Positions 25,122 to 57,544 of a stretch of DNA of 57,544 nt are shown here, one piece after another. Both the position numbers and the translations under genes were made by a program. The first letter of the stretch is position 1, and each line of letters starts with the position of its first letter. The stretch is from an uncultured Eubacteriales bacterium (GTDB lineage: Bacteria; Bacillota; Clostridia; Lachnospirales; Lachnospiraceae), in the NCBI GenBank assembly GCA_902803205.1, contig CADCOW010000100.1:1-57544 (forward strand), in the 5' to 3' direction. The notes under the pieces were generated by a model. The model made no database searches. It was not told the origin of the DNA and saw nothing but the letters and a program-made list of their open reading frames with translations.

Positions 25122-25128
25122 ATTGTCT

Positions 25129-25289
25129 GTAGTGGCGGATATCATCCGACCATTTGATGCTAACACTGTAGTGGCGGATATCATCCGCCCACAAATAATA
25201 AAAAATTGGAAGATAATATCTTCCCCTACAAAAGTCCGTAGGGGCGGATATCATCCGCCCACACCCGTATGGGCGAACTATGTGAACCC
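25129..25289. repeat. Cluster of five family-A REP-like elements (GTAG + GC hairpin)
   Basis: 25129-25151 (+), 25168-25190 (+), 25208-25229 (- strand; variant GTAGGGGAAGATATTATCTTCC), 25238-25260 (+), 25267-25289 (+, decayed GTAT form). Confidence 0.85.
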
Positions 25290-25336: not shown

Positions 25337-25365
25337 AAAAAGTATTAAAATAGTATTAAGATTTT
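25337..25365 (+). promoter_or_regulatory. Candidate operator of giant gene 2 (AGCATTAA / AGTATTAA / AGTATTAA direct repeats)
   Basis: The 29-nt block is identical to 2764-2792 and sits at the same 48-nt offset to the -35. A third, weaker repeat is at 25331-25338. Confidence 0.45.
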
Positions 25366-25384
25366 TAAAAAAACTTAAAAAAGG

Positions 25385-25413
25385 TTGAAATTATAAGGCT
25401 TTTTATGTATAAT
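25385..25413 (+). promoter_or_regulatory. Sigma-70/SigA-type promoter of giant gene 2
   Basis: TTGAAA (25385-25390), 17 nt spacer, TATAAT (25408-25413). Confidence 0.6.
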
Positions 25414-25530
25414 ATTAAAAATGGGTCTCTTAGCTCATTTGTATATTTTTGCGTGAATACGCAATGTGTTTTAATTGCAAGAATAAAATTTTTGTGATTA
25501 AAAAAATAAAAATTTTTAAGAGGTTTGGTT

Positions 25531-46500: not shown

Positions 46501-47448
46501 AAGATTAATACTTATAACTGGACAAATGATGGTAATTCTAATTTAGTTATATCTTATTGGAACACAAGTCCAACAGGAAATGGTACTACTTATCAAATAA
46601 ATGGTACTATAGTATTACCAGAAAATGATTATTCAATAACAAGACTTGATTTATATGCTATTTGGGTAACTAATCCAAATGGTGGAGGCTCAGGTAGAAG
46701 TGGTAGAGGTGGTAATTCAGTAAATGGCGGCGGCTATAGTGGTGGCGGCGGCGGTGGCGGAGGCGGTGGAGGAGGCGGTGGTGCCGGTCTCGCAGCTGGC
46801 TCTGCAGCTTTTGGTGGAACTACACCACTCGGCGGCAATATCGGTGTAATTGCAGATGATAATGAAACTATTGCAAAGGCAGTTTACTCAAACAACAATG
46901 CAGCACAAGGTAGCTGGTTCTATAACCCAGTATCAAATGGTTGGTCATTTGCACTTACAGGTAACTTTGGTAATACTACAAATAATAACAAAGTTGCAGC
47001 AAATGGTTACTTCTTAGTTTCAAATTCTGTAGGTAACAAAGCTTGGTATAAGTTTGATGCATACGGAACTATGATGACTGGATGGCAAGTAGAAGCAAAT
47101 GCAGTATATTACTTAAATAACAATCCTAATAGTAAAGACTATGGAGCTATGATGAAGGGTTGGGTAACAGTAGATGGTCTTGATTACTACTTCGATAGTG
47201 CTGGTAAACTCTTAGTCAATGGTGTAACACCAGACGGATTTATAGTAAATGAGAATGGTGCAAAAGTAGGACTTGCTAATAACACTATGGGAGCACTCGC
47301 AGGAACACTCGACTTAAGCACAGCACAAGGACTTGTAAATGCAGCTCCACTCACAGTTACAACTACATTCGCAACATACATAGCATACTTAAATGCATTA
47401 AAACTTCAACAAATGACACAAATAGTTCCAACAACAACAGTACAATAA
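25531..47448 (+). CDS. Giant secreted cell-wall-associated surface protein / fibrillar adhesin, 7305 aa, paralog of 2993-25066
   Basis: One uninterrupted ORF. The AAGAGGTTTGGTTATGTTT RBS/start block is identical to gene 1. Signal peptide MFGEKMKKAISIALIFGMVLSGNGFTILASS. The domain order is the same as gene 1. Confidence 0.9.
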   Translation: MFGEKMKKAISIALIFGMVLSGNGFTILASSVDDAVLKSEQESENKGQKNYYQMMYQEQYYEQTTVVSNNLFGTENTEAENKENNIDSTTAFENDGSESGDENKPTLQGSNQNQITDGENYGIEKPEDAFNSEEENEENKANEEEPEVDETTTTVKEKEEETTVDETLVISSNENENQTTTNNNIDETTIVSEETTKNENEESTTAPVETTKEGEGEKETKSEEESTTVEESTTETSKIDESTTETSKVEEITTETSKVEESATETSKVEESTTETSKEETSATNESSVESSETTQETTTEEVTTTEETTTKVKDTEDEEATNSETKKNITESENATKSDADETENNNVDEATASNVSEKKEATLSEIDLITDLKSTESEIKFEKVEKATVSIATVSVASESETTATESVIRVVKYIVATRAQIATTSIWKVKKFLINDDLTGSFMGSDPTEEEMNEKYLPKKVRVLIADQLGNERVVTIDAKWDRIRVNLQSGAKVESVPTATKAFIPVNLSNRGLKVDVNKGTFAADTIDVAKEDADRKFNEQVQKGINEFYAESMSEELEKSGETIDETIETDEDGNIINTTIDDENNNQNEENNEQTSTTEKVENGDETTIKETTKEETTTEETTTEETTKEETTTNIAPTEATTEKGNTEEPTVAGFNLSENDAEPEADSGEVDDDGNKIVGSQASNNVANTSEATNDETTVSNNETTISVSTSSVIESGNDSAVVEPYKIETVYEKTTIEKVAESDLVEDPGLLGNVATQIVNPNTANFAVGGELNMDSALSDLANILGNDSVVIIPQLEPIQLKTFGSGNNKLGLTPNGGGGGGGLFGTPGPGSHEGHGSNINYHAAGQQYVTDLSHYTVVDKTWTNAYVVEKESDIRDYANDSSRNNCLLILGASFTINDDVDFKKKNFYLCANGNTLTFGFEEDTKNNTVKVGRILHCRDIIVTNCKTTGGMSGLNTTSTDVSTHVPYDRKASVSYVNESGTVAYKKVSATAIQGGENNADVVSVTNVKVEDIFSNVHDKIQFTGYNDDAAAFIRSTASYVFMGNVKATGLVGAQGGLMKVGDAELLHVRGCEFKDNKAFKGACFNVRFKKDTDAIVNGSANGTNRGVFIYDNTFENNAYAFFDRDDENPYTFGRYTFAKTHYYKVDGTGLLKERITTGFNNTDDGTGAGYTRANDSKPKTSGTYETYQYQNLGYEKTTYNYDKTEANGLVLVDNVGIGYYNDTAISIEGNSIKNNMPYDLCGAFHVSLSNSLSSSVPGRAGKDAINIDVFRNTIENNCQYKSSKNDGDVAAGLTISMNPDGYADHRTVRYEEAYKMSSNSEAESYQKAIYENGEYGVAGRLDFYSNLVYDNYNMSPNPAGISIRNIKEVHINNKKDPGIISGHTEGATRTLDARTNAAKHNYTSGGGAAFEFMRNGKTRVYNMLFEENEAVTKGGAVYINGEQDIEFVNEGTKENPTVTFKNNIARTFGGAVYASDSNMIKFTKVDFTNNYLLSGSRWVTTMGLADYYTNWFYGYQQGSIRKTLPKEMVDKSKTLFDKIVESSVDMPFASSTYLGQYYYVKDEDATYICTQSDATYKWSQLDDAWTYYEETRKSAARGFVEPYLFADTGKGVYVKRGSTETIDDMFAGSAALDGTNVIDKQKIGTYDLTTGAIGGKVVNMGKGGAIALVSSLDTKLIFDNCDIKDNISSFTGGAIYANTEKGLISISGNEASRSEVSGNLAGRSGGFMMIENTRASFSYVNVERNHAEQGGAIFTFTDPDKHYREEDSELYIYKTDIVENGFLTDADKTPHEDYVEPKENYNFSYFGDTSTGREAVADKGEIKTDGHNYTDINNEAKHTIHNATDKSDWVKIMKTGNADAGDSGTAFNSGGAIYTYASQVKFDTGAYVAKNENTLYSIAGSTILTRQTTNHDLNTKEEEITFEQNRGQYVFGHFSTFKARFQFYGGKIVNNELDEKAVSDAKYDYIDSVERKMGGKTVKIYTAYALSDFKKAEERSIVLGGNIMIKDNKEGTKVKNLALEEGEQDRNYKFELSKDQTLHKNAEIYLTPQSPNGMRYQLFGNSKDTWEEELVDRADRTARGEAWSNNGLWTDEWVASRSEGAVVQNIFKNDFADDPMDGRVIYTARNVANNSSGKAPDEAGYVQGDTPDFGQIYLEDPNNLISMKFELYDLDENGNHRYSSQLETQYFSRGSRVQSPLSDSRETMKFSTDSSIRLIDLVGYLGSENSKRFAVWDYSYQITKGDTPIRVVDENKLVRIAGEDDTYNVQTLYAINAMTNHRHKICGTPIGVPCNHPDGSTHDSEQYYYGDDGIDNLQEVSRKDYDEPDYVEGGHLSIEVSTLSQLMYARKHPEYMYVLTNDLIIEKSWWNREINGIINDTSKPLKNLKLCLNGHNIFINDNRQLATFFGDNCYICNCQEKEVNIHYNYDTSTSHNYYPNTTGAGYVFNIVNSGTNNTNLNIYGNDNGHIVIDGLYMYNTNNSLMNLSNNDKLSMANVDFKNIGRNGTFGNPSLLSTTLLDLPGDAYISTVSFTNVHQTLLSTNPGSTDHKMGQGIIRLYDYNEENKNLTYAKTQILKNVTFENVSVDKQYSAIIVSNLKNDGSQFDVENVSIATASIKGRAAIALSQADGYYKGNVTIKNSTFSNVNAPVDKVTTGYTGGAIYVGGLLGKLTIENNYFYSCGVKDDSISYVKALNGGAIYIGDTDILSSAPGYKGQSVDPIDIINNTFINNNGGNGGALYMKNVPDTNLLNNIFEENIANMGSAVYHENTNKACRQGSVDASNNTFTNNGTIDTANKVTTKGTYYIRLPKQEGKPATTYTFTNFKAVGNEGATSVLYADYLDKDNVVLFKGDTLMTDNIGGPVVSIYNSLGGTNAGYIRFTENTKIASNSTGTLWAIYSNKDCVINVQFAGVVTVSENKTNGNTEANIYASQRIRTGVVPGMKLDGLNSLLYYSTDTDQAIIEWATSSIAGFDTPGLYLEDHIKPDNEYPTSQFVIYKTNEPGSEYTVYIGKRTDAVVIRGYLTSTISTAKKMLAKRNARDVYMDNFATPTEALAELRLTQPQYNNYEFGGWIIKNSVGEFETLNYGKTKINVDDEITLDAYWITKTHDHKSCGCDKGTPCVHGTPDDETWIGAFRESVLGINNSANYLILEDMELTKTITDPKKGYTICLNGHTITRNINSTAMTSLVNITGTAPYETGFNLINCKNKTATVRFTGSGKSSYPLIKVVNNDYASTSIIMKNFEINSIKTQQSEEGCIVNASGVDLTWENITLDKSEVINKALLNMTNSKTNIIGNETNMDRTSFDFPGGYYLGSEGLLVFNGGEVEFNYVKLSNTRVPQREGLINLKNLKSFKVNNSRFENNENNVSYSAVFNVQDVKYASISNTSMINNYTGRSGGVFYIANLTTASTINIVDSDLYGNRATEDGSSIYYRNEEAGNKLIINIVDTRIANNTARGVQNGGGAISLFTKTGIVETEMTELNIKVTDANKAPINDTTARVRQFRENKSGANGGFIYAKDAIITIESTDTSLTSSDKALEFVSNDAGNGANGGTFYLERSILNLKAATGFVNAIDNKTVLNGKGSFIYSAGTDKVGNESSHKDGVYLKNVTVERGTALSVNDSLHGLVAIGPYSDLKLDGVVKIGEDTTGTTVPVHNGLYEFTNGADDLTINVTKASRSLADTFDYGVVGTPTSKIYATTEYKDFYVIGHYTDHDRAGGMKVNQVFFKDSGYDSEYLVSRAGAMNNRIVIISNTSGIVRFDIGSNATIKYKDNGGLDITRDQMLENTQTIPFDTGATLDDIFYTGATAPDKAGYDFKGWVTTIWDEVNSEYKIANFDFTNSLAYLPSPQTELNVYAVWAPNGENKIEVEHFEQLYFIDNTSISPNEYNYKLSSSLLDGKLIASRSDIEAMAPFNKGGNYRMILDLNGKTLEIQQDITSFNDDSYRARFEIKNGTIKYNSAKAKEHPMFTGSLLKLEGVNIEEFNMKGSVFADIKGDGTNANQGLHLKAYSNLGLVKPTNIERNVNITFRTNADGLEIGENTHFSYNSAKDGVTDYSLKDYPLIYLTAPKNGTYKSKIEGSSFDFNTYIYSYIMTEMSMAEVDYTLDITNSEFRTSLLTGEKFIKGYPGAAEDLNAIIKTVHKSSASTIGKYRISNVDFITGDMNVFNSIIDAYDTSLEIENMHFDNLKAVQNIIAQDAPTKAATLIATSSTFNNNKLNNHRGSVVIMRRKANTVVDRFTDVEIKDNSSTYAMAAYAVNSSVFTYPAYSFNGEIIVKNNKHENILNNRGTGDIVIPQFTSGEQVLAFNTVGNKPITTTSEISLYRQTVVDGDLVADKTWTPQVHDHTTERIFTMKDSNGVSDYVVYRDGISLRVAKTSSTLYKTITFNLNNGTDTITNEDIVVNTQYIAEGTYVDEPVEPINAAGYAFGGWYIVDTNTPNKYIRYDFTNTTSDDYRMWSATRSELYAMWTNKQIYLTVYSNDNGHPKSDASVIFAHTNPYKAYFKVPMGGKLSDAVEIRKYVPTAYDPTTLAPTEGAWDSWDATSEFTRGGLTDAGWFDKNGWNDGANDGADGWGNEWNRVESMFLIDNDKHSETLADGNLFVKWRGALIDINYNLNDASEGSGSTLATYSSVGVATQSYYNDTVGSAEYKLPVPTRVGYEFNGWYSDATLTNKVENETIFTWTTAPVFYAKWTAIKYTISYVTEPGDDTTGKTNENKDDEFKFDEAKNLARNGYKMVGHNFKWWVATDSETGIVATYSDMQNVINLATISDTNIKLAARWQAQETKMKFILNDTKGSNTATMSESLASKSVTYGKEIGELPVPERKGYRFAGWYKTVNSANNDNDVDLINADMIFNESLKSGSAFVPVKSGNVQEVSVYARWENNIYSIKTESGVAADDKYPVNSGEDYEYDLAFDFADSNIGKEYTRLKPKFETKASKKYQRDGYKYLGLYATYSDTVIFADNRTENVEFTKGKPLYNLGLKDIASGSNIVFVASWSELTYNLIVKSGHEILGEGVTFTNVSDYPATVSEFKNLKYTEEFVLSSKATPYEIEGYKFNGFTTKGYEFDFDSVLSGATFSDVIKNNENVTITLEGHWIRNPYTVVYKNARTEEEAAKVSGNLADQIFSVGEPQELRSISKLVYPGHTFEYWYDEGYVEGSVGNKATYSDIERVQDIRTDRDAVATLSAVWRDNEYSLIFNDNAPAGTTVRGTKEAIRDIKYTTEFDIGTPGFIVDGYRATKFTNHEKLAKSNPKYIITPSTTEEVNMVKELVDVDGTELELYLQWEPNEYKVKLDLNDGNSETKADPYISSISLAYNKQFKSQPEYMNIVRGAAGAPTRPGYKFSGWTKTPKLPTEEATELDKTEIFRPTELDISTYSMTIYAYWQAQPYTITVDANTIDEVDGHTKSVKGAKTATVKKVPYDQKINDPSIPRELPMSYLGGYEFTHYATASEWSEGMIKIDGDTIFNFEAGPTTIYAQYKPIKFKIHYSTNSDVNVEGNMPDQNITYADGTEFREIIESSESTTFKKKGYTFVNWTYTNPETLYNTKGKTIVRKPYTFDNKASASQIRESTGSVAIMIPNWKEHEYTITFSPATESLAASGHHDYTGRVNPMTLKYSQNANLPDRGYNITGYDLVAWVDANDSSKRYDLGAPISKLAGEEYGVKGENKEIKLNAVWQAKEFDITFIRNDASQNNGSTIASLSVAGVDMGQAAYTIKATYDSAFPDSVVYKTVHDLTKDIIATRSGYDFIGWSTEQNVAYIERVNKTVKADAVFKSTSTLRLYAMWKPKEVTARLYVQTRNFGVTPKWTTGARVGQDVDDTNPIEHTLYYDQPYNRSETQGLVTTALELPSTVGFDFVRYFAPREASESNPTAEWSSIGRESDVDRTKFVDIDTEGAARLDTFDSLYEENGKYYINLYGFWEVGAVKLYLVSTYSNADGSSPYRNSRDVTYGARVGYLSDGTLNPLPGYNNTTGPRRPGYDFVNWISIPTDLYPASTSEVVVITNETPYWNTVQSATAYATWRTKEIAVTFNITLDKESDSQSPITWSRDVGQTSGNNRIGRYMYTSRVASTSIPKPERPGYKFIGWKTADNATKIYSADTDWENMDIYENTTLYAYWRGDTYTVTFDLWGGFNGVGGSTPMLSSTIVGKDEDGNAGQTYSAGVAYDIVTTSIAYKSLFSTAFNNTTDLFKPVRTGYDFVGWFAHRSDRFWNQGWDASGYHGYRNKQGADNEPLTKNVMFESSNLGYTTALPQNVTLYALWVPKNVKIRYKYNWGTDNQNKAFRGTTEVANTYVDSELVFGDRFGQARAAGSINNASDKMIPSVQVPGKIFASNANDPTKQHAYPASVRTDNTTRREGYTFRGYNTAEDFSGDYITNDTVFDYADTTKEVWAHFTPNDYTITFVPNTSTNNAGGNVGGRQYYDIENATFKFNGAVVDLNTWTSDVTFGTNTWRLPVPDPIPGYTFKGWYTKNAANAGLMNKTQTEWGRYVGGDSTNTAAAPKYDLNLDVISEGYEWVNGAENTAAAKEQLKKVARDIKLYARWERNKYRIDWRTNRYNGLSEDEINGSSIPKQVESRISTDVYYGLPLNIDKDGNARTAMPTTSRDGYTFKGWSIEGGLRTSPIFDYAGGEQFKPVAMYTSGATIPMYAIWEPKLYTVKLNFNANDTNYKRPNIDSAYNNAGDHINDVETMIRSDNPSSASGYVNRFTFKVPFDGLITDSASIPTGTNVHLYTNYNAASTSHIEGFTFDKWTYGTAKTSEEYDSTHRLNASFISTYASGDTVNMYSQWTPKTYTLNIAGWAHSGETYSYNEVVEISSQDITAEAGMILIGLDYNQGGLEPHFNLVNDISKFTRLTDDGSITLVPRFKSQEFAITYRNSNDRTVMTVDSTKYPVWYDVEGNSNLPASSYPITEIPEKQGWEFLWWQYDWAEGTTGTASEIVLPPVGTTGEKEITAVWTPGTIEVVFHKNDGSGVTAIDAIGLDRKLKINTYNWTNDGNSNLVISYWNTSPTGNGTTYQINGTIVLPENDYSITRLDLYAIWVTNPNGGGSGRSGRGGNSVNGGGYSGGGGGGGGGGGGGGAGLAAGSAAFGGTTPLGGNIGVIADDNETIAKAVYSNNNAAQGSWFYNPVSNGWSFALTGNFGNTTNNNKVAANGYFLVSNSVGNKAWYKFDAYGTMMTGWQVEANAVYYLNNNPNSKDYGAMMKGWVTVDGLDYYFDSAGKLLVNGVTPDGFIVNENGAKVGLANNTMGALAGTLDLSTAQGLVNAAPLTVTTTFATYIAYLNALKLQQMTQIVPTTTVQ
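26221..26370 (+). repeat. 30-bp in-frame tandem repeat x5 (ESTTETSKVE)
   Basis: Five consecutive 30-nt units starting at 26221. Confidence 0.85.
28048..38690 (+). other. Four beta-helix cassettes of giant protein 2
   Basis: Cassette heads at about 28048 (SHEGHG..LCANGN), 32386 (NHRHKICGTPIGVPCNH..LCLNGH), 34867 (THDHKSCGCDKGTPCVH..ICLNGH) and 37150 (..ILDLNGK). PMP-type GGA[IV]Y/F..N motifs are seen, for example, at 29770-30000, 30540-30830 and 33500-33850. Confidence 0.6.
38692..46670 (+). repeat. Array of about 25 Listeria-Bacteroides (Flg_new) domains in giant protein 2
   Basis: Same unit signature as gene 1. Isolated extra copies lie at about 34600-34865 and about 36820-37125. Confidence 0.75.
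46681..46785 (+). repeat. Gly-rich hinge with an uninterrupted GGN tract (46741-46782)
   Basis: GGGSGRSGRGGNSVNGGGYSGGGGGGGGGGGGGG. Confidence 0.9.
46909..47270 (+). other. Cell-wall-binding (CW_binding_1-type) repeats, C-terminal anchor of giant protein 2
   Basis: KAWYKFDAYGTMMTGWQVEANAVYYLN...GAMMKGWVTVDGLDYYFDSAGKLLVNG. Confidence 0.7.
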
Positions 47449-47461
47449 TTACATAAAATAT

Positions 47462-47496
47462 AAAAGTGGGAGATTTTCTCCCACTTTTTATTTTTT
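47462..47496 (+). terminator. Rho-independent terminator of giant gene 2
   Basis: AAAAGTGGGAG / CTCCCACTTTT stem, loop ATTTT, followed by a T-rich tail. Confidence 0.8.
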
Positions 47497-47627
47497 AAAT
47501 TTGGGGACGGGGTATATTATTGGTGATTTGGGGACACCCTTGGGCGGATGATATCCGCCCCTACAGAATTTAAGTTTGGGTAAATTTGGGGACGGGGTAT
47601 ATTATTGCAATTTTGGGGACACTGTTG
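47497..47627. repeat. Left composite flank: B(+) 47497-47540, A(-) 47542-47564, B(+) 47582-47627
   Basis: AAATTTGGGGACGGGGTATATTATTGGTGATTTGGGGACACCCT, then GGGCGGATGATATCCGCCCCTAC, then TAAATTTGGGGACGGGGTATATTATTGCAATTTTGGGGACACTGTTG. Confidence 0.9.
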
Positions 47628-47633
47628 TATAAT
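47605..47633 (+). promoter_or_regulatory. Candidate promoter of the transposase gene, built partly from the B repeat
   Basis: TTGCAA (47605-47610), 17 nt spacer, TATAAT (47628-47633). GGAGG RBS at 47640-47644. The leader would be very short. Confidence 0.4.
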
Positions 47634-47652
47634 TGTTGTGGAGGACTAAAAT

Positions 47653-48447
47653 ATGCCAAGAGTTGCAAGAGATATTTCAGAAACAAAAATTTATCATATT
47701 ATGAGTAGAGCATTAAACAAACAAACTCTATATGATGATGAACAAGACTTCTTATATTTTTTAAAATTACTTAAAGAAGTGAAAAACGAAACGCATTTCG
47801 AATTGTATGCATATTGCATAATGACAAATCATTATCATTTGTTATTAAAAGAACATGATGTGAAGATAAGTGCAATTATGAATAAAATTAATTCACGATA
47901 TGCAAATTATTACAATTTAAAAAATGGAAGAACTGGTTATGTATTTAACGACCGTTTTCATAGTGAAAGTGTTGACAATTCATCATATCTTTTTAGGTGT
48001 GCGAGATACATTCATCAAAATCCAGTAAAAGTGGGGCTGTGCGATAAAACTTATAATTACAAATTTTCATCTATACATGCATATAGAAGACAGAAAGGAA
48101 ATTATTTAAAACTTGTTGACACTGATTTTATAAATAAGAATTTTAAGTCAAATGAGTTCGCAAGTTGGAATGACTTGGAGAGCCATGATAGATGTATGGA
48201 CATAGCAAATAATAAATTGTCTGATAAGGAAGTGACAAATATTTTATATAAACTCATGAAAGTTGATAATAAAAAAGAGTTTTTAAAAAAGAGTGAAGCG
48301 GAACAAATGTATTACATAATAAAACTTATAGATATGTCTATACCTTTAAAACAATTATCAAGAGTTACAGGACATAGTTATTATAAATTGCAAAAGTTGA
48401 GACGTGGTAAAGTTGGAAATGTAACTAAACTTACTTATAAACCATAG
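47653..48447 (+). CDS. IS200-like Y1 (HUH) tyrosine transposase of the REP-associated (RAYT-like, COG1943) type with a C-terminal HTH region
   Basis: N-terminus MPRVARD..IYHIMSRALNKQTLYDDEQDFLYFL. HUH motif NHYHLLL (H60/H62). Candidate catalytic Tyr in RYIHQNPVK (Y119). The C-terminal ~80 aa look helix-turn-helix-like. Confidence 0.8.
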   Translation: MPRVARDISETKIYHIMSRALNKQTLYDDEQDFLYFLKLLKEVKNETHFELYAYCIMTNHYHLLLKEHDVKISAIMNKINSRYANYYNLKNGRTGYVFNDRFHSESVDNSSYLFRCARYIHQNPVKVGLCDKTYNYKFSSIHAYRRQKGNYLKLVDTDFINKNFKSNEFASWNDLESHDRCMDIANNKLSDKEVTNILYKLMKVDNKKEFLKKSEAEQMYYIIKLIDMSIPLKQLSRVTGHSYYKLQKLRRGKVGNVTKLTYKP

Positions 48448-48451
48448 AGTT

Positions 48452-48570
48452 AGGGTGTCCCTAAATTACCAATAATATACCCGTCCCCAAATTTAAATGC
48501 TGTAGGGGCAGATATCATCCGCCCAAAAGGTGTCCCCAAATCACCAATAATATACCCCGTCCCCAAATTT
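48452..48570. repeat. Right composite flank: B(-) 48452-48494, A(+) 48502-48524, B(-) 48528-48570
   Basis: AGGGTGTCCCTAAATTACCAATAATATACCCGTCCCCAAATTT, then GTAGGGGCAGATATCATCCGCCC, then AGGTGTCCCCAAATCACCAATAATATACCCCGTCCCCAAATTT. Confidence 0.9.
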
Positions 48571-48572
48571 AA

Positions 48573-50192
48573 ATGGTAAGTAGAACTAAAAATATAATAA
48601 TAAATTTGTGCATGAGTACACTTGGTACAATTTTTTTGATTTATTATATCTTTAGGGGAAGTACTGATGTTGTGGCAAGTGATTATATTCGTATAATTAA
48701 TTATTATCTTGAAGATGTAAGTGATTTACACTATTTGTTGTCGTGGGAAGGAATTGCAAGAATACCATTCACATTTCTTATGAGATTTTTAAATGTCAAA
48801 ATATTTAGTTATTCAGTTTTTTTTGACAAAATTATAGGAACTTTTGGATTATTCTTATTTAATATGGTGATACTTAGTTTTGTACTTAAATATTTACATA
48901 GTAAACCCATAAGGATGATTGCAAGTTTTCTAATTACTTATATTTCATTTTCACTTATGGCTTGGGAAATGATTTTAAATGGCACTGGCTATGCTCACTT
49001 TTTAACGGTAGGACTCATGGCATTAACATTTAAAATGTTTGCAAATATAGAGGGAATGAGTATAAATGCAAATGTGAAATTAAAAAATCATTTACAACTT
49101 TCCTTACTAATAATCATTACTTCACTTTGTTTTGCTGGTAGTTATAGTGTATCATATCTTTGCACAATTATTTTCTTTTCAATCGTTTCTATAATAGTAA
49201 GATTGCACAAAAAAGAAAATAGAAAAGAAAAATTTTTAAGTCAAATAGTGTACATTGTGATTTCAATTGTTTGTCTTTCACTTTATTTCAAAAGCAATAA
49301 TACTGGTGAAGCATTGATACCAGTTGGATTTAAAGACATTTCTTTGATTGAATTACTAAAGACGCAACCATTGTTCCCTATTAAGTTTATGCTAAAAAGT
49401 TTGGCGAGCAGTATAATAGGTGTAGAAACATTTGACTATGCACTTAAATTTGGAACCATCAGTGAAAAGTTTATATTTTTGATAGGATTTATATATTTAA
49501 TAATAATTATATTTGTTATAGTATTACTTATAATTAAAATTATAAATGTTGTTCGCATAGTTTATTGTAAAAATGATGTTGATGGTGCGAATGTCACGAA
49601 ACAAAATGAAAGCGAAGTTCTTATAAATGAAGAATTAAGTTTATTTATTTTTATAAGTATGTTTATAGTAGCAGGAATAGCAAACTATTTACTTATATTT
49701 CTTGCAAGATACAAATTTGTTGTTGATAGTTATGGAATGACAAGTAGGTATTCGCTTCAATATATGTTTTTGACTATAGGAATTTTAATGCTTCTTTTAA
49801 AATTGATGGATGAATTATTGGCGAAGCATTTGCAAAATGATGTGAGCATAGTTCAGATGCAAAATAAAAGTGAAACTAAGAAAAAAGTTTTTTTATTAGC
49901 ATTTAATAATAAAATAAAAACATTTTTAATGGTGTCAAGTATAATGTCTCTAAGTTTTATAACGATAGGACATTTGACAACCAACACTGATGAAATTTTT
50001 AAAGCAGATTATAGAAAAATTATATATAGTGTAGTAGAAGATAAGGCAAAAAATTATAAGAATTTGACTGACCAAGATTTAGAAGATACCTTTGAGTATC
50101 ATAGAGGACCAGAACAAATTAGAAAAGCATTTGAAATTCTTGAAAATCAAAAACTAAATATTTTTAGGGAATCACAAAAAAATAATAATTAA
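48573..50192 (+). CDS. Polytopic integral membrane protein of unknown function (possibly cell-envelope glycopolymer related)
   Basis: 539-aa ORF with many long hydrophobic segments. The start is uncertain: ATG 48573 directly abuts repeat B and has no obvious RBS. It lies just upstream of rfbF. Confidence 0.55.
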   Translation: MVSRTKNIIINLCMSTLGTIFLIYYIFRGSTDVVASDYIRIINYYLEDVSDLHYLLSWEGIARIPFTFLMRFLNVKIFSYSVFFDKIIGTFGLFLFNMVILSFVLKYLHSKPIRMIASFLITYISFSLMAWEMILNGTGYAHFLTVGLMALTFKMFANIEGMSINANVKLKNHLQLSLLIIITSLCFAGSYSVSYLCTIIFFSIVSIIVRLHKKENRKEKFLSQIVYIVISIVCLSLYFKSNNTGEALIPVGFKDISLIELLKTQPLFPIKFMLKSLASSIIGVETFDYALKFGTISEKFIFLIGFIYLIIIIFVIVLLIIKIINVVRIVYCKNDVDGANVTKQNESEVLINEELSLFIFISMFIVAGIANYLLIFLARYKFVVDSYGMTSRYSLQYMFLTIGILMLLLKLMDELLAKHLQNDVSIVQMQNKSETKKKVFLLAFNNKIKTFLMVSSIMSLSFITIGHLTTNTDEIFKADYRKIIYSVVEDKAKNYKNLTDQDLEDTFEYHRGPEQIRKAFEILENQKLNIFRESQKNNN

Positions 50193-50231
50193 CATTATTT
50201 TATGAAACCTTAAAAATCAGAAAGGATAATT

Positions 50232-51002
50232 ATGAAAGTTGTGATTTTAGCAGGTGGCTTCGGTACAAGAATAAGTGAGGAGAGTCATCTAAGACCAAAA
50301 CCAATGGTTGAGATAGGTGATATGCCTATACTTTGGCATATAATGAAATATTATAGTAGTTTTGGATTTAATGATTTTATCATTTGCCTTGGATACAAAC
50401 AATATGTTATAAAAGAATTTTTTGCAGATTATTTTTTACACACATCTGATGTGACATTTGATCTTAAAAATAATGAGATGAAAGTCTTAAATAAAAATGG
50501 AGAAGACTGGAAAGTTACTCTCATTGATACAGGTTTAAATACAATGACCGGTGGTCGTGTAAAGAAAATTTTAGATTATGTTCCTGAAGAAGATTTCTTT
50601 TTAACATATGGGGATGGGCTTTCAAATGTAGATTTAAATAAATTATTGGAATTTCATAAGAGCCATAAAAAGATTGCTACAATTACTACTGTATCAATCT
50701 CAAGTATGAAAGGGGTGCTTGAGATAAATGATAATGATATCGTTACTTCATTTAGAGAAAAAGATGGAAGTGATGAAGCAATTATAAATGGTGGTTACAT
50801 GGTTTTGAATAAAAAAATAAAAGACTATATCGCAGGTGATAGCACACCACTTGAAAAAGAACCATTTACAAAATTATCAGAAGATAGAGAGCTTATGAGT
50901 TTTAGACATAAAGGTTTTTGGCAGTGTATGGATACTCAGCGTGAGATGAAATATTTAAATGAATTGTGGGAGAGTGGAAATGCTCCTTGGAAAAGGTGGT
51001 AG
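50232..51002 (+). CDS. rfbF: Glucose-1-phosphate cytidylyltransferase (CDP-glucose synthase)
   Basis: Matches the RfbF pattern along its full length: MKVVILAGGFGTRISEE..KPMVEIG..PILWHIMK.Y...F.DFIICLGYK.YVIKE.F..YFLH.SDVTF...TGGR..GDG......H......T.......G.......V.SF.EK......INGG..VL......W....GNAPWKRW. Confidence 0.9.
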   Translation: MKVVILAGGFGTRISEESHLRPKPMVEIGDMPILWHIMKYYSSFGFNDFIICLGYKQYVIKEFFADYFLHTSDVTFDLKNNEMKVLNKNGEDWKVTLIDTGLNTMTGGRVKKILDYVPEEDFFLTYGDGLSNVDLNKLLEFHKSHKKIATITTVSISSMKGVLEINDNDIVTSFREKDGSDEAIINGGYMVLNKKIKDYIAGDSTPLEKEPFTKLSEDRELMSFRHKGFWQCMDTQREMKYLNELWESGNAPWKRW

Positions 51003-51008
51003 GATAAT

Positions 51009-51887
51009 ATGAAAAAAATAAGATTATTGTTAATGGTATTTATCATTTGTAGTGTAATGTCAACATTTACATTTGCTAATTGGGAGAAAGATTCAAATGG
51101 CAGATATAAATTTTTAGAGCCATCAAGTAATCAGTATGTGACAAACAACTGGCTTCAAGTTGGTTCTAATTATTATTTTTTTGACAATAATGGTTTAGCA
51201 GTTACTGGTTGGTATTTAATCAATGGTAAATATTATTTGTTTGATGCAAATTGTGCTATGCAAGTTGGTTTCGCAGATTACAATGGAAAAACTTATTATC
51301 TTGATCCAAATTCTGGTCGGATGGTTACTGGTTGGATACAGGTTAATAATAATGGAGTATTAGATTATTATTATTTTGCAGAAGATGGAGTTATGTATGA
51401 TGGCTGGAACAAAATTGGAGACAAGTGGTTTTACTTTTTAAATGGTAAATGTCTTGTAGGTACATTTGCAGAGGTAAATGGTGTATGGTATCATTTTGGA
51501 GTAAATGGTGCGATGGATACAGGTTGGGTTTCAGCAAACAATAAAATGTATTATTTCAATTCAAAAAATGGTGGTATGATGAAAGGCTGGGTGCAAGATA
51601 ATAATGGAAATGAATACTATTTATCTGATATAGATGGAAGTTTGGTTGTGAATACAACTGTACAGCTTGGTGGAAGAACTTATGTATTTGATTCGCTTGG
51701 AAGATGTATAGGAAAAGAACAAGGTGTGTATATGGGAGTTTACTATGGTGATAATGCCATAACTAATTATGGAGTTAATCTTGGTATTTCACCAAGTCTT
51801 GGAGTTGGTATGGGTGTCAGTAGTTTTGAACAGCAAAGGATTGATTCGACACCACTTGAAGCAGGTGAAACTTCAGGTCCAAAATAA
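51009..51887 (+). CDS. Secreted cell-wall-binding repeat protein (CW_binding_1 / choline-binding-type repeats)
   Basis: Signal peptide MKKIRLLLMVFIICSVMSTFTFA. About 9 repeats of the form G.YY[FL]...G.M.TGW. Confidence 0.85.
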   Translation: MKKIRLLLMVFIICSVMSTFTFANWEKDSNGRYKFLEPSSNQYVTNNWLQVGSNYYFFDNNGLAVTGWYLINGKYYLFDANCAMQVGFADYNGKTYYLDPNSGRMVTGWIQVNNNGVLDYYYFAEDGVMYDGWNKIGDKWFYFLNGKCLVGTFAEVNGVWYHFGVNGAMDTGWVSANNKMYYFNSKNGGMMKGWVQDNNGNEYYLSDIDGSLVVNTTVQLGGRTYVFDSLGRCIGKEQGVYMGVYYGDNAITNYGVNLGISPSLGVGMGVSSFEQQRIDSTPLEAGETSGPK

Positions 51888-51890
51888 AAT

Positions 51891-53021
51891 ATGAAAGTAT
51901 TAGTTGCTATGTCAGGCGGAGTTGACTCAACCGTTACCGCTCATATATTAAAAAAACAAGGTTATGAAGTAGTAGGTGTAAATTTTAATTTTACTGGGAA
52001 TGATGCTACTTGCATAACCTTTGATGATATTGCTGAAAAATTAGATATTAAAATTATTTACAATGATTATAGACAAGAATTTTATGATAAAGTTATAACT
52101 TCTTTTGTTCGCGACTATGAATCAGGCATTACTCCAAATCCTTGTGCACTTTGCAACAATGTGATGAAATTTGCAAAACTTATAGATGTGATGAAAGAAG
52201 AAAGCTGTGATATGATTGCTACAGGTCATTATGCAAATGTTACAAAAATAAATGACAGATATTGCATAAAGAAAAGTGAAAATGAGATGAAAGACCAGTC
52301 GTATATGCTCTATCGTCTTAGCCAAGAACAACTTTCTCATATCATTTTCCCAATAGGTAATATGGATAAAAAGAATGTGAGGCAAATTGCAACTGAACTA
52401 AATCTTGAAGTTGCAAATAAAAAAGATTCTCAAGATGTTTGTTTCATAAAAGATATTCCATATCAAGAATTTATAAAAAGATATGAATATGGTGATGATT
52501 ATAAAGAAAGAATTGCAAGAGGTGAACTTAAGGAAAAAGATATTTTATTTAAGCCTTATCTTAAAAAGGGAGAGTTTATAGATACCGATGGTAAGGTTTT
52601 AGGTTTTCATAATGGTATAATAAATTATACTATTGGACAAAGAAAAGGATTAAATATTGCTTTTGGTGAAAGAAAATTTGTAGTATCTATAGACGCAAAA
52701 AAAAATCAAGTAATACTTGGGAATAATTCTGATTTACAAGCAACAGAATTTAAAATATATGATATTGTCTACAGTGGACTAACAAAAGAAGAACTTTTAA
52801 CTTTCAGCAAAAAGATGTTTGCAAAACTTCGTTATAGGCACGAACCGACTGAATGTCATTTAAATTTGGGGACGGGGTATAATATTTATGATTTGGGGAC
52901 ACTGTTTATTCCAGTCAAACTTTCAAGTCCAGTTAGAGCCATAACCCCAGGTCAGTCGGCTGTTTTCTATGATGAAGAGGGGAGAATACTATTTGGCGGT
53001 AGAATATCATCACCATCGTAG
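51891..53021 (+). CDS. mnmA: tRNA-specific 2-thiouridylase MnmA, carrying an in-frame repeat-derived insertion
   Basis: PP-loop SGGVDS, NPCALCNN..KF, ATGHYA, KDQSYML, KKDSQDVCF, ITPGQSAVFY. The stop codon TAG 53019-53021 lies inside the GTAG of a family-A repeat. Confidence 0.93.
   Translation: MKVLVAMSGGVDSTVTAHILKKQGYEVVGVNFNFTGNDATCITFDDIAEKLDIKIIYNDYRQEFYDKVITSFVRDYESGITPNPCALCNNVMKFAKLIDVMKEESCDMIATGHYANVTKINDRYCIKKSENEMKDQSYMLYRLSQEQLSHIIFPIGNMDKKNVRQIATELNLEVANKKDSQDVCFIKDIPYQEFIKRYEYGDDYKERIARGELKEKDILFKPYLKKGEFIDTDGKVLGFHNGIINYTIGQRKGLNIAFGERKFVVSIDAKKNQVILGNNSDLQATEFKIYDIVYSGLTKEELLTFSKKMFAKLRYRHEPTECHLNLGTGYNIYDLGTLFIPVKLSSPVRAITPGQSAVFYDEEGRILFGGRISSPS
52860..52907 (+). repeat. 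Family-B repeat copy inside the mnmA coding sequence (48 nt, 16 codons: LNLGTGYNIYDLGTLF)
   Basis: TTAAATTTGGGGACGGGGTATA...TTGGGGACACTGTT matches the intergenic copy at 47582-47627 over 21-nt and 14-nt identical blocks. Confidence 0.85.
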
Positions 53022-53090
53022 TGGCGGATACCATCCCCAAATGTAGGGGCGGATATCATCTCTGATTGTAGCGGCGGATATCATCCGCCC
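53018..53090 (+). repeat. Three tandem family-A REP-like elements directly after (and overlapping) the mnmA stop
   Basis: GTAGTGGCGGATACCATCCCC (53018-53038), GTAGGGGCGGATATCATCTCT (53043-53063), GTAGCGGCGGATATCATCCGCCC (53068-53090). Confidence 0.85.
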
Positions 53091-53103
53091 ATGGTAAAAA
53101 ATA

Positions 53104-54393
53104 ATGAAGTACAAAAATATACAAAAAATAAATAATATTTTAAGAGTAAAGAGTTGTATCATTTTAATTATTGCTCTAATAGTCAATTTATTTGCATGTG
53201 CAAAAACACTAAACTTAGTAGATCCAAATGAAGTAGCAAAAGAATCATTTGATACAGAAACTTTGCAAGCAGTAACCATAGGTATTGAAGCGTATAGTGA
53301 CTTAGATAAAGTTTATCCAAGTGGATTATATAGTGCAGATCAAAAAAATATAGACACTTTAAATGAAAATACTAAGGATGAAATAGATGGTACTGATGAA
53401 AGTATAGAAATTGAAGAAGTCATAGATGAACAAGATTCAGATACAAATGATAATCAGGATAGTGAAAATGGTTTTGAAATAAGACAAGATTTATATGAAG
53501 TTTTAGATATTGATTCAGATAAAACTTCAAGCACAGTATTAGCTACAAGTTCTAATGGCAAGACTATAGTTCGTAATAAAAAAAGGTTTATTGATTATGA
53601 ATACGATACTCTTGACCCAGTGATTGTAAAAAAAGTTTATCTTAATAAAGATTATCAATTTGCAACATTTTCAGTTATAAATTCTGGCTATGCCACACTA
53701 TATATGGTCAATAAAAAAGTTGTGCCAAATTATAAAGGGAAAGTTGTAGCAGTAAATGCCGGACATGGAGTAAATGGTGGAACAAGAAAAAAAACTTTTT
53801 CTCATCCAGATTTTACACCAAAAGTATCAGGTGGGTCAACAAAAGAGGGGGCAATATATTCTTACGCCATATCAGATGGGATGGTTTTCTTAAATGGGAT
53901 TCAGGAATCAGTTGTTAATCTTTTAGTAGCAATTAAACTTCGTGATAAATTAATAAATGAAGGATATACTGTGCTTATGATGCGAGAGGATGAAAAGAGC
54001 CGGCTTGATAATATTGCTAGAATAGTGATTGCAAATGAGTATGCTGACTGTCATTTATCAATTCATTTTGATTCAACTGATGGCGATAAAGGAATTTTTT
54101 ATGTAAAGCCAATTAACAATAAAAAATTTCTTGAGATGGAACCACTTAAATCAAATTATGATAATATAGTTAAATTTGGTAATTGTCTAATAGAGGCATT
54201 TAGAGAAAAAAATGAAAAAATTTGGAGAAATGAGGGCATACTTCCAGGTGACTTAACTCAAATTGCATTTTCAACAAATGCAAGTGTCGATATAGAACTT
54301 GGTGATCGTGCAAGTGTAGTTGATGAAGCAAGAGCAGATGTCTTGGCAGATGGACTACTACTTGGAATCCAAAAATTTTTTGACTTAAATTAG
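53104..54393 (+). CDS. N-acetylmuramoyl-L-alanine amidase (Amidase_3 family), predicted lipoprotein
   Basis: Lipobox-like LFAC after a hydrophobic N-terminus. C-terminal domain VVAVNAGHG...E..VNL.VA.KL...L...GY.V.M.RED........R...AN.....HLSIHFDS. Confidence 0.75.
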   Translation: MKYKNIQKINNILRVKSCIILIIALIVNLFACAKTLNLVDPNEVAKESFDTETLQAVTIGIEAYSDLDKVYPSGLYSADQKNIDTLNENTKDEIDGTDESIEIEEVIDEQDSDTNDNQDSENGFEIRQDLYEVLDIDSDKTSSTVLATSSNGKTIVRNKKRFIDYEYDTLDPVIVKKVYLNKDYQFATFSVINSGYATLYMVNKKVVPNYKGKVVAVNAGHGVNGGTRKKTFSHPDFTPKVSGGSTKEGAIYSYAISDGMVFLNGIQESVVNLLVAIKLRDKLINEGYTVLMMREDEKSRLDNIARIVIANEYADCHLSIHFDSTDGDKGIFYVKPINNKKFLEMEPLKSNYDNIVKFGNCLIEAFREKNEKIWRNEGILPGDLTQIAFSTNASVDIELGDRASVVDEARADVLADGLLLGIQKFFDLN

Positions 54394-54534
54394 GGGACGG
54401 GGTATATTATTTGAAATTTAGGGACACCCTTTAAAATCAAGTAAAATAAACCATTTTTAAGACCAACAGTGTCCCCAATTCGTCAATAATATACCCCGTC
54501 CCCTAATTTAAAAACCAACAGTGTCCCCAAATTT
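54385..54534. repeat. Family-B inverted doublet plus a solo half-copy (REPIN-like)
   Basis: B(+) 54385-54430, B(-) 54464-54510, half copy CCAACAGTGTCCCCAAATT at 54516-54534. Confidence 0.85.
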
Positions 54535-54542
54535 AAAAAAGT

Positions 54543-55148
54543 ATGTTACAACTTCACATAAAAAAAATGAATGTTTTAATTTCTGCCCTCTGCCTTATGG
54601 CATTTCTTTTTGCTTGCTCTACACCTTATGATGAAGAATCAATAAATTCTAATTATATTCCTGAGGCTGCAAATCAATTTGCATTGGATAAGGAAACAGA
54701 GGTTGAGACTAATGAGCCGACTAAGGCACACCGCAACTGGCCAAGCAACTTTAAGTTAAATCCAGCGAAGGAAATTGCGATTGGCGAGAAGCAGTATTTG
54801 ACTAAAATCAACTACATTTACAACAATATTGACCAGTTTCTTGAATCTACCATTATTATAGAAGGAATGTATGGGCAATATACATCTTGGGATGGTACTT
54901 TCAAGAGCCCGATGGTTTATAGAAATGGTCCTGCCGAGCATGGCGATGACCAATATGGCGGTTTTTATCTTGTAAATATAAATGAGCAGGCATACACTTT
55001 AAATGACTGGATAAGGGTGGAGGGAAAGCCATTTATGTATGACCACACTGATACGGATGGTGAAATTCAACACTTTTTGTTCTTAAATGTTGAAAAAATA
55101 GATATTTTGACTGTTAAAGACCGTAAGCCAGAGATGGTAAATGATTAG
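54543..55148 (+). CDS. Predicted lipoprotein of unknown function (GC-richer than its neighbours)
   Basis: Lipobox-like ..MAFLFAC-S. The start may instead be the internal Met at 54567. Hand counts give about 43-47% G+C in 54661-54780 versus about 27% in 53581-53640. Confidence 0.6.
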   Translation: MLQLHIKKMNVLISALCLMAFLFACSTPYDEESINSNYIPEAANQFALDKETEVETNEPTKAHRNWPSNFKLNPAKEIAIGEKQYLTKINYIYNNIDQFLESTIIIEGMYGQYTSWDGTFKSPMVYRNGPAEHGDDQYGGFYLVNINEQAYTLNDWIRVEGKPFMYDHTDTDGEIQHFLFLNVEKIDILTVKDRKPEMVND

Positions 55149-55194
55149 ACTTCTTTAAATGCGAAATCCGCCCAAAGGGTGCCCTTAAAAACAC

Positions 55195-55223
55195 TTGCAA
55201 AATATACGAAAATAGTGTAATAT
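55195..55223 (+). promoter_or_regulatory. Candidate promoter of the 55285 gene
   Basis: TTGCAA (55195-55200), 17 nt spacer, TAATAT (55218-55223), with TG immediately upstream. Confidence 0.45.
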
Positions 55224-55284
55224 AGATATGTATGAGTTTTACCCTTGGAAGTTTGGGTTGCAAAAAAATTGTAGAGGAATAGGT

Positions 55285-57165: not shown

Positions 57166-57194
57166 TTAAGGGTCAAATTTAATAACTTTTGTAA

Positions 57195-57219
57195 GGGTGG
57201 TCAATAACCGCCCTTTTTA
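57195..57219 (+). terminator. Rho-independent terminator
   Basis: GGGTGG (57195-57200) / CCGCCC (57208-57213) stem, followed by TTTTT. Confidence 0.7.
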
Positions 57220-57238
57220 TTTATACTAAAATCCATCT

Positions 57239-57440
57239 GTATGGGGCGAATATCTTGCTTATCGTAGGGGCGGATATCATCCGCCTATTGTATTGGCGGA
57301 TATCTTGCCTATCGTAGGGGTGGATATCATCCGCCTATTGTATGGACAGATACCATTTGCCTATCGTAGGGGCGGATATCATCCGCCTATTGTATGGACA
57401 GATATCATTTGCCTATCGTAGGGGCGGATATCATCCGCCC
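57239..57440 (+). repeat. Head-to-tail array of 8 family-A REP-like units, alternating decayed (GTAT..) and intact (GTAGGGGCGGATATCATCCGCC) forms
   Basis: GTAG heads at 57264, 57314, 57366 and 57418 (spacings of 50, 52 and 52 bp). The interleaved GTAT units are homologous to the same motif. Confidence 0.85.
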
Positions 57441-57483
57441 GATTTATTAAGAAATTGTTAAGAAAACTTTATAATAAATTATA

Positions 57484-57512
57484 TTGAATTTTCAAGCAAT
57501 TTTTTATATTAT
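57484..57512 (+). promoter_or_regulatory. Possible promoter for a gene beyond the window end
   Basis: TTGAAT, 17 nt spacer, TATTAT. Confidence 0.3.
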
Positions 57513-57544
57513 AGTATCATAACTAAGTGTACAGCTTAGAATAA

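Follow-up and report, generated by a model that had tools for sequence, protein, structure and literature searches.

Which DNA does a Y1 transposase act on when two different repeats flank its gene in mirror image? The question is raised by a locus in a 57,544-nt stretch of DNA from an uncultured Lachnospiraceae bacterium (contig CADCOW010000100.1; the whole stretch is called the window below). There, a gene for a 264-aa protein with the HUH and tyrosine motifs of Y1 nucleases is enclosed by two short repeats, A and B, arranged as B-A-B on either side. The original prediction, made from the letters of the window, regarded the protein as a tyrosine transposase associated with repetitive extragenic palindromes (REPs), that is a RAYT, and took A and B together as its two families of clients. 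Our analysis favors another answer, to which we give a probability of roughly 60%: two separate Y1-nuclease/repeat systems overlap at the locus, and A is nested in a unit of the TIRYT type that consists of the gene and B.

The anatomy of the locus can be described first, and its coordinates are collected in Table 1. The left composite occupies 47497-47622 and the right one 48455-48570; each is a B-A-B, and the two are mirror images around the gene. This had been predicted, and both the coordinates and an inverted-repeat search agree with it. The arrangement is far beyond chance. The B unit has 41 nt (AAATTTGGGGACGGGGTATATTATTGGTGATTTGGGGACAC), while the A unit is a hairpin of 23-26 nt (CTGTAG-GGGCGGAT-ATC-ATCCGCCC). 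According to shuffled sequences, zero matches are expected for the full B and the full A patterns, and the window holds 12 TTWGGGGAC sites against 0.3 expected. The computed fold of A has a stem of 8 bp and a loop of 3 nt (-9.5 kcal/mol, z -4.8), and its two flanking copies are inverted with their GTAG ends toward the gene, as predicted and as the flanks of a REPtron would have it. B was predicted to be non-palindromic with TTTGGGGAC occurring twice, 27 bp apart, and this is what was found; a single B does not fold in the computation, and for this reason its interpretation as a palindrome or terminator was rejected. An inverted pair of B copies at 54387-54509 does give a long hairpin (-33.8 kcal/mol, z -8.9). 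Taken together, the outer B and A modules are an inverted repeat that extends over about 87 nt (51 nt at 96% and 41 nt at 93%), while the inner B pair is complementary by just 78-83%, thus the outer and inner pairs differ in divergence. A scan of 47000-57544 with Rfam gave only sub-threshold sraA-like matches over the terminator, and no known RNA family.

To which side of the Y1 superfamily does the protein belong? It is on the RAYT/TnpAREP side, not on that of IS200. Pfam recognizes Y1_Tnp at residues 13-123 (1.4e-12) and a Cro/C1-type helix-turn-helix (HTH) domain, HTH_26, at residues 225-258 (2e-5), the latter corresponding to the extra C-terminal region noticed in the prediction. The predicted catalytic residues, H60-Y61-H62 and the tyrosine of RYIHQNP (Y119), are also in place: N59-H60-Y61-H62 and R118-Y119-I-H-Q-N123-P124 do not vary among 36 aligned homologs, the most distant of which have 34% identity, so that the absence of catalytic residues, named beforehand as a reason to give up the proposal, was not observed. 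Around the catalytic tyrosine the protein has Y---NP, by which class 2 (TnpAREP-like) proteins are recognized, and class 1, the IS200 type, has Y---Q (PMC6006769). The NCBIfam model REP_Tyr_transpos (NF047646) is covered over its whole length with 77.8 bits (curated cut-off 80), and the IS200/IS605 model gives only 16.6 bits where its cut-off is 55. An AlphaFold2 model of the protein (mean predicted local distance difference test score 84.9) has as its best Foldseek match 4ER8, the E. coli TnpAREP bound to a REP hairpin (E 5.6e-8, TM 0.77). The TnpA structures of IS200, IS608 and ISDra2 rank after it, the chains of IS200 and IS608 having E 4e-5 or worse.

Within class 2, the protein is probably an HTH-bearing TnpA-Y1 of subclass 2.1, or TIRYT type, as placed by shared features rather than by the profiles or tree of the authors of that classification. 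Subclass 2.1 is the largest subclass of class 2, with Bac_DnaA_C, HTH_23 or HTH_28 at the C-terminus, a conserved Ser after the core and another motif at the positions where TnpAREP recognizes GTAG (Quentin et al. 2018, PMC6006769). The same subclass takes in the majority of TIRYTs (PMC6006769), proteins for which Di Nocera et al. (2013, PMC3733652) described flanking inverted repeats with GGGG[AT][CG]A[CG] in common. The window protein shows these features, with a C-terminal HTH of the HTH_23/HTH_28-like kind, and like TIRYTs it is longer than classical RAYTs. Five C-terminal helices past the core (residues 191-251) are modelled with good confidence, and the last three (215-251) span the HTH_26 match; among the 36 family members, the C-terminal domain matches HTH_26 in 11, HTH_23 in seven and HTH_28 in three. 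The Ser after the core is S140, which is invariant in the same alignment. As for the recognition of GTAG, E. coli TnpAREP contacts it by W94, Q95, E/D100, H/R101 and R104 (PMC6006769). The corresponding positions of the window protein are F98, N99, S104, E105 and D108 (VFNDRFHSESVD aligned to IWQPRFWEHAIR of 4ER8), with F, E and D standing where TnpAREP has W94, H101 and R104. Group 1 of the RAYTs has been reported in Clostridia (PMC5581495). The published examples of TIRYTs and subclass 2.1 are mostly from Proteobacteria and Acidobacteria, unlike the present one.

Is the unit then an ordinary mobile element, either an insertion sequence (IS) of the IS200/IS605 type or a composite transposon with the 87-nt inverted repeats as its ends, which was inserted recently? 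The protein has the Pfam Y1_Tnp match and shares the HUH/Y1 fold, and presumably single-strand cleavage at DNA secondary structures, with TnpA of IS608 and ISDra2; the near-perfect outer inverted repeats resemble transposon ends; and some distant relatives are duplicated, either twice within 20 kb or twice in one metagenome-assembled genome (MAG) (L008, L057, L037/L079 and L053/L058, where L numbers label the loci of relatives and the contigs compared in this analysis). However, the model score and the Y---NP context are not those of IS200, the ends are inverted rather than on the same strand, and no tnpB-sized open reading frame (ORF) was found beside the gene. What is more, the orthologs with 87% (L084) and 88% (L214) identity are located directly upstream of the same membrane-protein gene as in the window. 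In L084 the genes for an NTP-transferase, a 292-aa protein and mnmA follow as in the window, and the upstream neighbor is different (clpX). The exact protein occurs on three contigs that were read, the window's own being a fourth record, and its neighbors are the same in all of them. No target duplication is evident at the unit. The many identical 1.07-kb copies with target duplications that the original prediction had named as evidence against itself were not seen among the contigs read. An ordinary IS was therefore rejected, because related species have the gene at the same place in the chromosome and because of the model scores, and we regard it as very improbable; the predicted departure from the frame of IS200/IS605 elements is borne out. 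The gene appears to be domesticated, fixed in the chromosome and single-copy, the exact protein being seen in one context only. At E <= 1e-30, the full-length relatives in the family fall into about 359 clusters (50% identity), most homolog clusters are drawn from one or two contigs, and the closest named homologs are from MAGs of Lachnospiraceae and Clostridia. Members are rare on plasmids, being found in 14 of 72,556 records. The local duplication of some distant relatives, such as L008 and L057, suggests that parts of the family may be more IS-like.

If the gene is fixed, which repeat is its own? B is most likely the cognate element of the protein, because it carries the TIRYT motif and the promoter of the gene, and because B, or a hairpin with the loop GGGGACGGTTCT, flanks relatives in Bacillota in inverted orientation. 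The stretch GGGGACAC of B fits the published TIRYT motif GGGGWSAS and is present in both outer copies and in the inner-left copy, while the diverged inner-right copy has GGGACAC. The promoter TTGCAA-17-TATAAT is the only good promoter-like site on the plus strand upstream of the gene, and its -35 box belongs to the inner-left B. The same layout recurs in 14 of 37 relatives, with a TTGACA-like -35 box directly after the upstream motif and a -10 box 16-18 nt further on.

How far does this association extend? Species-representative genomes were scanned, which gave at least 80 loci with relatives at 31-40% identity among the matches listed; close relatives were retrieved singly. The listed distant relatives are almost all from Bacillota, with a few from Prevotella. 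GGGGAC[AG]G is found on both flanks, inverted, in 31 of the 48 listed loci that have usable flanks. Upstream the motif typically starts about 60-66 nt ahead of the start codon; downstream it is typically located about 9-22 nt past the stop codon. Copies in the wrong orientation are rare. In these relatives the motif is the loop of a small hairpin, in which the loop is conserved as GGGGACGGTTCT (in L013 and L038 as the variant GGGGACGGGGTT, as in B) and the stem varies by species, for example CAATCA/TGATTG, AAGACA/TGTCTT and GGGACA/TGTCCC. For 84 distinct copies, the stem is paired in 73.6% of cells, compared with 45.6% for column shuffles and 35-43% when the partner was slid, and the covariation score is 0.67 versus 0.21. 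Among close relatives with 50-89% identity, the B-type flank is kept upstream, and most of them keep one past the stop codon too. The latter is located directly past the stop codon in L087, L214, L220 and L221, and in L222 a few nt beyond that; L087 (69%) and L214 (88%) have B on both sides. L084 has the upstream B only. The inner-left B of the window is near-identical in L084 and L214, with one substitution at the 3' end. L221 (62%) shows AATAAA-AGGGACGGGG-TTTATT followed by TGCAATATAAGGGACAC. In L089 (50%), inverted hairpins (GAATAATGGGGACGGACCTCATTATT) enclose the Y1 gene together with an abutting gene for a 1015-aa DUF6273 protein (9920-13980), and a third hairpin copy lies 9.5 kb off.

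In some genomes, copies of the hairpin are also scattered near the Y1 gene: Mesobacillus subterraneus (L052, hairpin AAACACGGGGACGGTTCTACTGTTT) has 39 in 20.7 kb, Bacillus litorisediminis (L072) has 20, and two MAGs, one from Lachnospiraceae and one from Syntrophomonadaceae, have 20 and 13, respectively. In the dense loci (L052, L072, L006, L043 and L007) 13-39 copies are found per roughly 13-21 kb, and many of them form inverted pairs about 50 nt apart. Small dispersed families of single and dimeric copies are known for TIRYTs as well, whereas no REP-like sequences were found with subclass 2.1 by Quentin et al. (PMC6006769), unlike the covarying, loop-conserved and sometimes REP-like dense hairpins of the Bacillota relatives. 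A full-text literature search for the loop motif returned nothing relevant, and this loop-tagged hairpin family tied to the proteins across Bacillota may be undescribed. As to the repeats of the window itself, the original prediction supposed that a system with a non-palindromic B had not been described. This needs to be divided: TIR-type flanks with the motif are already published, while the bipartite, promoter-bearing form of the flank is unpublished as far as our literature search showed.

Could B be simply an operator? In such a scenario the protein is a pure DNA-binding regulator, the two GGGGAC boxes around the ATTGCAAT palindrome are its binding sites near cell-wall genes, and the copies arose by ordinary duplication instead of Y1 chemistry. 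An HTH domain and a promoter embedded in B would suit this scenario, as would a B that is no hairpin here, its dispersed copies beside amidase and choline-binding genes, and the lack of polymorphism between samples. However, the HUH, Tyr and N-P residues are invariant in the homologs, which argues for retained nuclease chemistry, and operator duplication gives no explanation for a cognate hairpin that reaches REP-like density in other genomes, often as inverted pairs about 50 nt apart. We consider a pure regulator unlikely.

Then what is A? By its format, a GTAG, an 8-bp perfect palindrome, a 3-nt loop and mostly CT before, it is a canonical REP, built like the biochemically studied group-3 REP of S. 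maltophilia, which the TnpAREP of that species cleaves at CT (PMC8266576). A does not follow the gene across related genomes, as the client of a REPtron would. It is missing in eight of nine other close-relative lineages with the B-type flank (L084, L214, L087, L220, L221, L222, L089 and L093), and the ninth, L215, has a different tagged hairpin. A search for perfect hairpins tagged by GT[AG][GC] at about 90 loci of the family gave just scattered singletons away from the genes. The co-occurrence of gene, A and B across genomes thus gave a divided result, as B is shared by close and distant relatives and A is mostly absent.

On the other hand, A is widespread without the gene. The exact 22-mer GTAGKGGCGGATATCATCCGCC was found in at least 120 metagenome contigs (L094-L213, for example L114 7250-8000, L131, L108 and L106) with GC contents of 33-67%, in many cases as inverted doublets 44-50 nt apart, and a member of the 264-aa family is in none of the at least 120 A-bearing contigs listed. 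REP families are usually restricted to a species or genus, in contrast to this spread. Eleven of the A-bearing loci encode a small RAYT-like protein of about 165 aa (REP_Tyr_transpos, 62-72 bits), which keeps the GTAG-recognition residues as WQKSFxD[HR]xIR (W, Q, D, R/H, R). In those read in detail, A copies are found directly upstream of the small gene, and A sequence is also in frame inside it, between the HUH and Tyr motifs, where it gives the peptides GRMISAPT and VGADIIRP. In-frame REPs inside the gene are a trait reported as unique to subclass 2.4 (PMC6006769). Literature searches by the A and B motifs and by these two peptides returned nothing relevant, only unrelated primers. A tblastn search for the small RAYT in the window found none. 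A therefore probably belongs to another system, with the small RAYT as its driver, encoded elsewhere or lost. The prediction of one two-family client system is not supported, given the absence of A from most close relatives, its spread without the gene, a small RAYT of its own and the lack of the contact residues. Of the broader proposal, a RAYT with REP/BIME or REPIN clients, the RAYT-side protein and the inverted repeats remain, but A is probably not its client and B is a TIRYT-type flank. The statement that such systems are best characterized in Proteobacteria is correct; in a 2013 survey, no REPs of the GTAG type turned up among Firmicutes.

One may still ask whether the locus is a true two-client REPtron, in which the protein mobilizes A by its Y1 core and B by its HTH domain and the B-A-B composites are its ends. 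The comparison with canonical REPtrons (E. coli YafM, 4ER8; group 3 of S. maltophilia and Marinomonas, PMC8266576) shows much in common, including the catalytic fold with Y---NP, an apparently single-copy and vertically inherited gene, inverted repeats on both sides and the exact format of A. Moreover, A is inverted on both flanks with GTAG inward, the outer B and A modules are 94-100% identical, the catalytic residues are intact, the window has no other RAYT, and in L215 an 89%-identical protein is symmetrically flanked by another tagged hairpin. Against these stand the 87-88% identical orthologs and six further close-relative lineages that have B and no A, the many contigs where A occurs without the gene and in some cases with its own small RAYT, the lack of the GTAG contacts together with the extra HTH, and the roughly 90 family loci without association to GTAG hairpins. 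Such a REPtron is therefore improbable in our estimate.

The case of L215 deserves further attention. Its hairpin, GTAC-GGGCGAGC...GCGAGCCC, is inverted on the two sides of the gene; it (GTAC-GGGCGAGCTATGCGAGCCC, L215 1-975) has taken the place of the right B entirely and of the inner-left B in part. Together with A in the window, this makes two independent symmetric associations with REP-like hairpins, so the flanks could be preferred landing sites of REPs, or the protein could use such hairpins. A further possibility, which we find improbable, is that the protein acts on B through its HTH and core and also captures whichever tagged REP is active in the host, A here and the GTAC hairpin in L215, with its flanks serving as a recurrent docking site or a second substrate. 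A weaker version, and a likelier one, is that Bacillota may hold a large undescribed family of REP-like hairpins with the loop GGGGACGGTTCT, driven by subclass 2.1 proteins.

Several points weigh against two overlapping systems and should be noticed. Both A in the window and the GTAC hairpin in L215 are symmetric around the gene, which is what a true REPtron would look like, and a chance nesting that happened twice is somewhat uncomfortable. No small RAYT was found within the 57.5-kb window. The REP_Tyr_transpos score is a little under the cut-off, and the subclass placement is built on shared features. Whereas all characterized Y1 enzymes known to us have hairpin substrates, B is no hairpin in the window, and to our knowledge binding, cleavage or mobility has been demonstrated for no protein of subclass 2.1. 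Contigs of the same species from other samples are 100% identical, so recent movement of A or B is not visible, and the comparison of repeat positions between strains that the original prediction had proposed is uninformative on movement.

With two overlapping systems as the preferred reading, how might the locus have come about? In the first system, the 264-aa gene would be a domesticated, fixed, HTH-bearing class-2 Y1 nuclease with B as its cognate DNA. B would derive from the small hairpin with the species-variable stem and the conserved loop GGGGACGG(TTCT or GGGT), inverted on both gene flanks, and in this lineage the AT-rich stem would have eroded to leave the bipartite, non-palindromic B, with its two GGGGAC boxes around the ATTGCAAT core. 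The protein may bind B by its HTH on the duplex, by its Y1 core on single strands, or by both. Binding would repress the gene's own promoter, whose -35 box lies in the inner-left B and whose spacer includes the second GGGGAC box. Occasional single-strand cutting and rejoining at B might then seed nearby copies as singles, inverted pairs, the in-frame copy in mnmA and the half-B. Because conservation is in the loop rather than in a guide tetranucleotide at the foot, one may speculate that the recognition mode is unlike those of IS608 and TnpAREP. In the second system, A is the canonical 23-nt GTAG REP, likely driven by the small RAYT. L214 has a tandem B-B on the left without A and a single B on the right; compared with it, A in the window sits at the B-B junction, between CCTT and AATTT. 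This suggests a scenario in which A entered the junction of tandem B copies, and the module of outer B and A was then copied to the other flank, or homogenized with it, to give the mirror image. The outer B copies are identical over a 38-nt core while the inner ones have diverged, which argues for recent copying or homogenization, and gene conversion between inverted repeats is a possible route.

How are the two repeats distributed over the rest of the window? Copies were counted by nhmmer sequence-profile searches. There are 12 clear copies of A, two flanking the gene and 10 elsewhere, plus about five degenerate ones; B has seven full copies, four flanking and three elsewhere, and one half-B, with one further B just past the window end (L216). 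The original prediction had counted about 18 further A copies and at least eight further B-derived ones. The many dispersed A copies are confirmed at the lower numbers just given, and the count for B was too high unless half-sites are included. All of the approximately nine B copies in about 60 kb lie within 12 kb of the gene. In the REPIN-RAYT systems of Pseudomonas and Neisseria (Bertels and Rainey), a single-copy transposase is likewise accompanied by short clients that are not autonomous, long hairpins arise from inverted doublets, as from the B pair at 54387-54509, and inheritance is vertical among close relatives; the differences are that the client here has no GTAG palindrome and that its copies are few and close to the gene. 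The half-B looks like the product of a deletion between the two internal GTCCCCAAA (GGGGAC) direct repeats of a full B. The B-like segment in mnmA encodes a loop about 9 aa longer than those of solved MnmA structures and has an equivalent in L084 (6943-6985), thus B was in the lineage before these species split. Dispersed B copies adjoin amidase and choline-binding genes.

Table 1. Features of the Y1 locus and dispersed copies of A and B in the window
Feature	Position	Strand	Remarks
Three A copies, head-to-tail	25127-25261	+	Downstream of first giant ORF; A family, not B/TIRYT unit
Intrinsic terminator of upstream giant ORF	47462-47488	+	12-bp stem, then T run; left boundary of the unit
Outer-left B	47497-47537	+	TTTGGGGAC twice, 27 nt apart; 38-nt core same as outer-right B; nhmmer E 9e-15
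Left A	47541-47566	-	23-nt GTAG REP (CTGTAG, 8-bp stem, 3-nt loop); GTAG end toward gene
Short fragment resembling terminal part of inverted B (cccaaacttaaatt)	47567-47581	-	In inverted repeat I10 with 48486-48526; read directly
Inner-left B	47582-47622	+	Ancestral flank, common to orthologs; carries -35 box of the gene; nhmmer E 6e-14
Sigma-70-like promoter TTGCAA-17-TATAAT	47605-47633	+	10/12 consensus matches; spacer holds second GGGGAC of B
Gene of 264-aa class-2 Y1 HUH protein	47653-48447	+	RAYT-like core ~residues 1-145, C-terminal HTH ~190-251
Inner-right B	48455-48494	-	Begins 8 nt past stop codon; diverged partner of inner-left B
Right A (CTGTAGGGGCAGATATCATCCGCCCA)	48500-48525	+	GTAG end toward gene
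Outer-right B	48530-48570	-	Partner of outer-left B
Dispersed B, in frame inside mnmA	52862-52902	+	nhmmer; conserved in L084
Three A copies, head-to-tail	53016-53091	+	First gives mnmA stop codon
Dispersed B, inverted pair	54387-54427; 54469-54509	+; -	nhmmer
Half-B (GTGTCCCCAAATTTAAA)	54521-54537	-	nhmmer
Head-to-tail A array	57262-57440	+	Four good copies, each alternating with a degenerate one; period 26/52 nt

The arrays of A are head-to-tail, unlike the bacterial interspersed mosaic elements (BIMEs) of E. coli, in which the orientation alternates. In nearly every recognizable copy the GTAG is on the plus strand, which is the coding strand of all large ORFs; the exceptions are the copy left of the Y1 gene, which is clear, and a weak degenerate copy on the minus strand at about 25212-25230. 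The stop codon of mnmA (53016-53021) is the TAG of a GTAG repeat, and the last residues of the protein, SSPS, look A-derived.

Some other features of the window can be listed here. Two tandem giant ORFs on the plus strand (2924-25066, 7380 aa; 25525-47448, 7307 aa) contain repeated GY.F.GW modules, Gly runs and C-terminal repeats resembling cell-wall-binding repeats. Each is followed by a terminator, after which come A copies in the first case and the B-A-B composite in the second, and a conserved stretch is common to the regions upstream of both ORFs (about 2766-2900 and about 25339-25470). Upstream of the first giant ORF there is also a 55-nt inverted repeat (2458-2512 and 2597-2651; 73% complementary, 84-nt spacer), unrelated to A and B. 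Within 333-372, in the ORF-rich region 298-2265, there is a run of about 11 G, with a degenerate A-like copy at 351-372 directly after it; the run might serve slippage or phase variation, or result from a problem in the assembly.

What does the locus mean for these proteins? We know of no function for subclass 2.1, and the only DNA partners known to us are inverted repeats of a loose definition. In the present case the partner can be specified well: a Bacillota hairpin with a covarying stem, an invariant loop, fixed distances to the gene, a promoter overlap and up to about 2 copies per kb in some genomes. The hairpin and B thus provide concrete oligonucleotide substrates for probing the activity of a subclass 2.1 protein, and with them REP-like biology reaches into Gram-positive bacteria, a group scarcely treated in published surveys of REPs. 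If the protein did turn out to mobilize both A and B, it would be the first RAYT with two clients and would provide the first demonstration of a functional REP system in a Gram-positive bacterium. The occurrence of the A 22-mer in hosts with GC contents of 33-67%, and in frame in its own RAYT gene, offers a handle on the movement of REPs between hosts. Another lesson from the locus is that flanking position alone is no guide to the client of a RAYT, since a canonical GTAG REP can nest symmetrically around a gene that is very probably not its driver.

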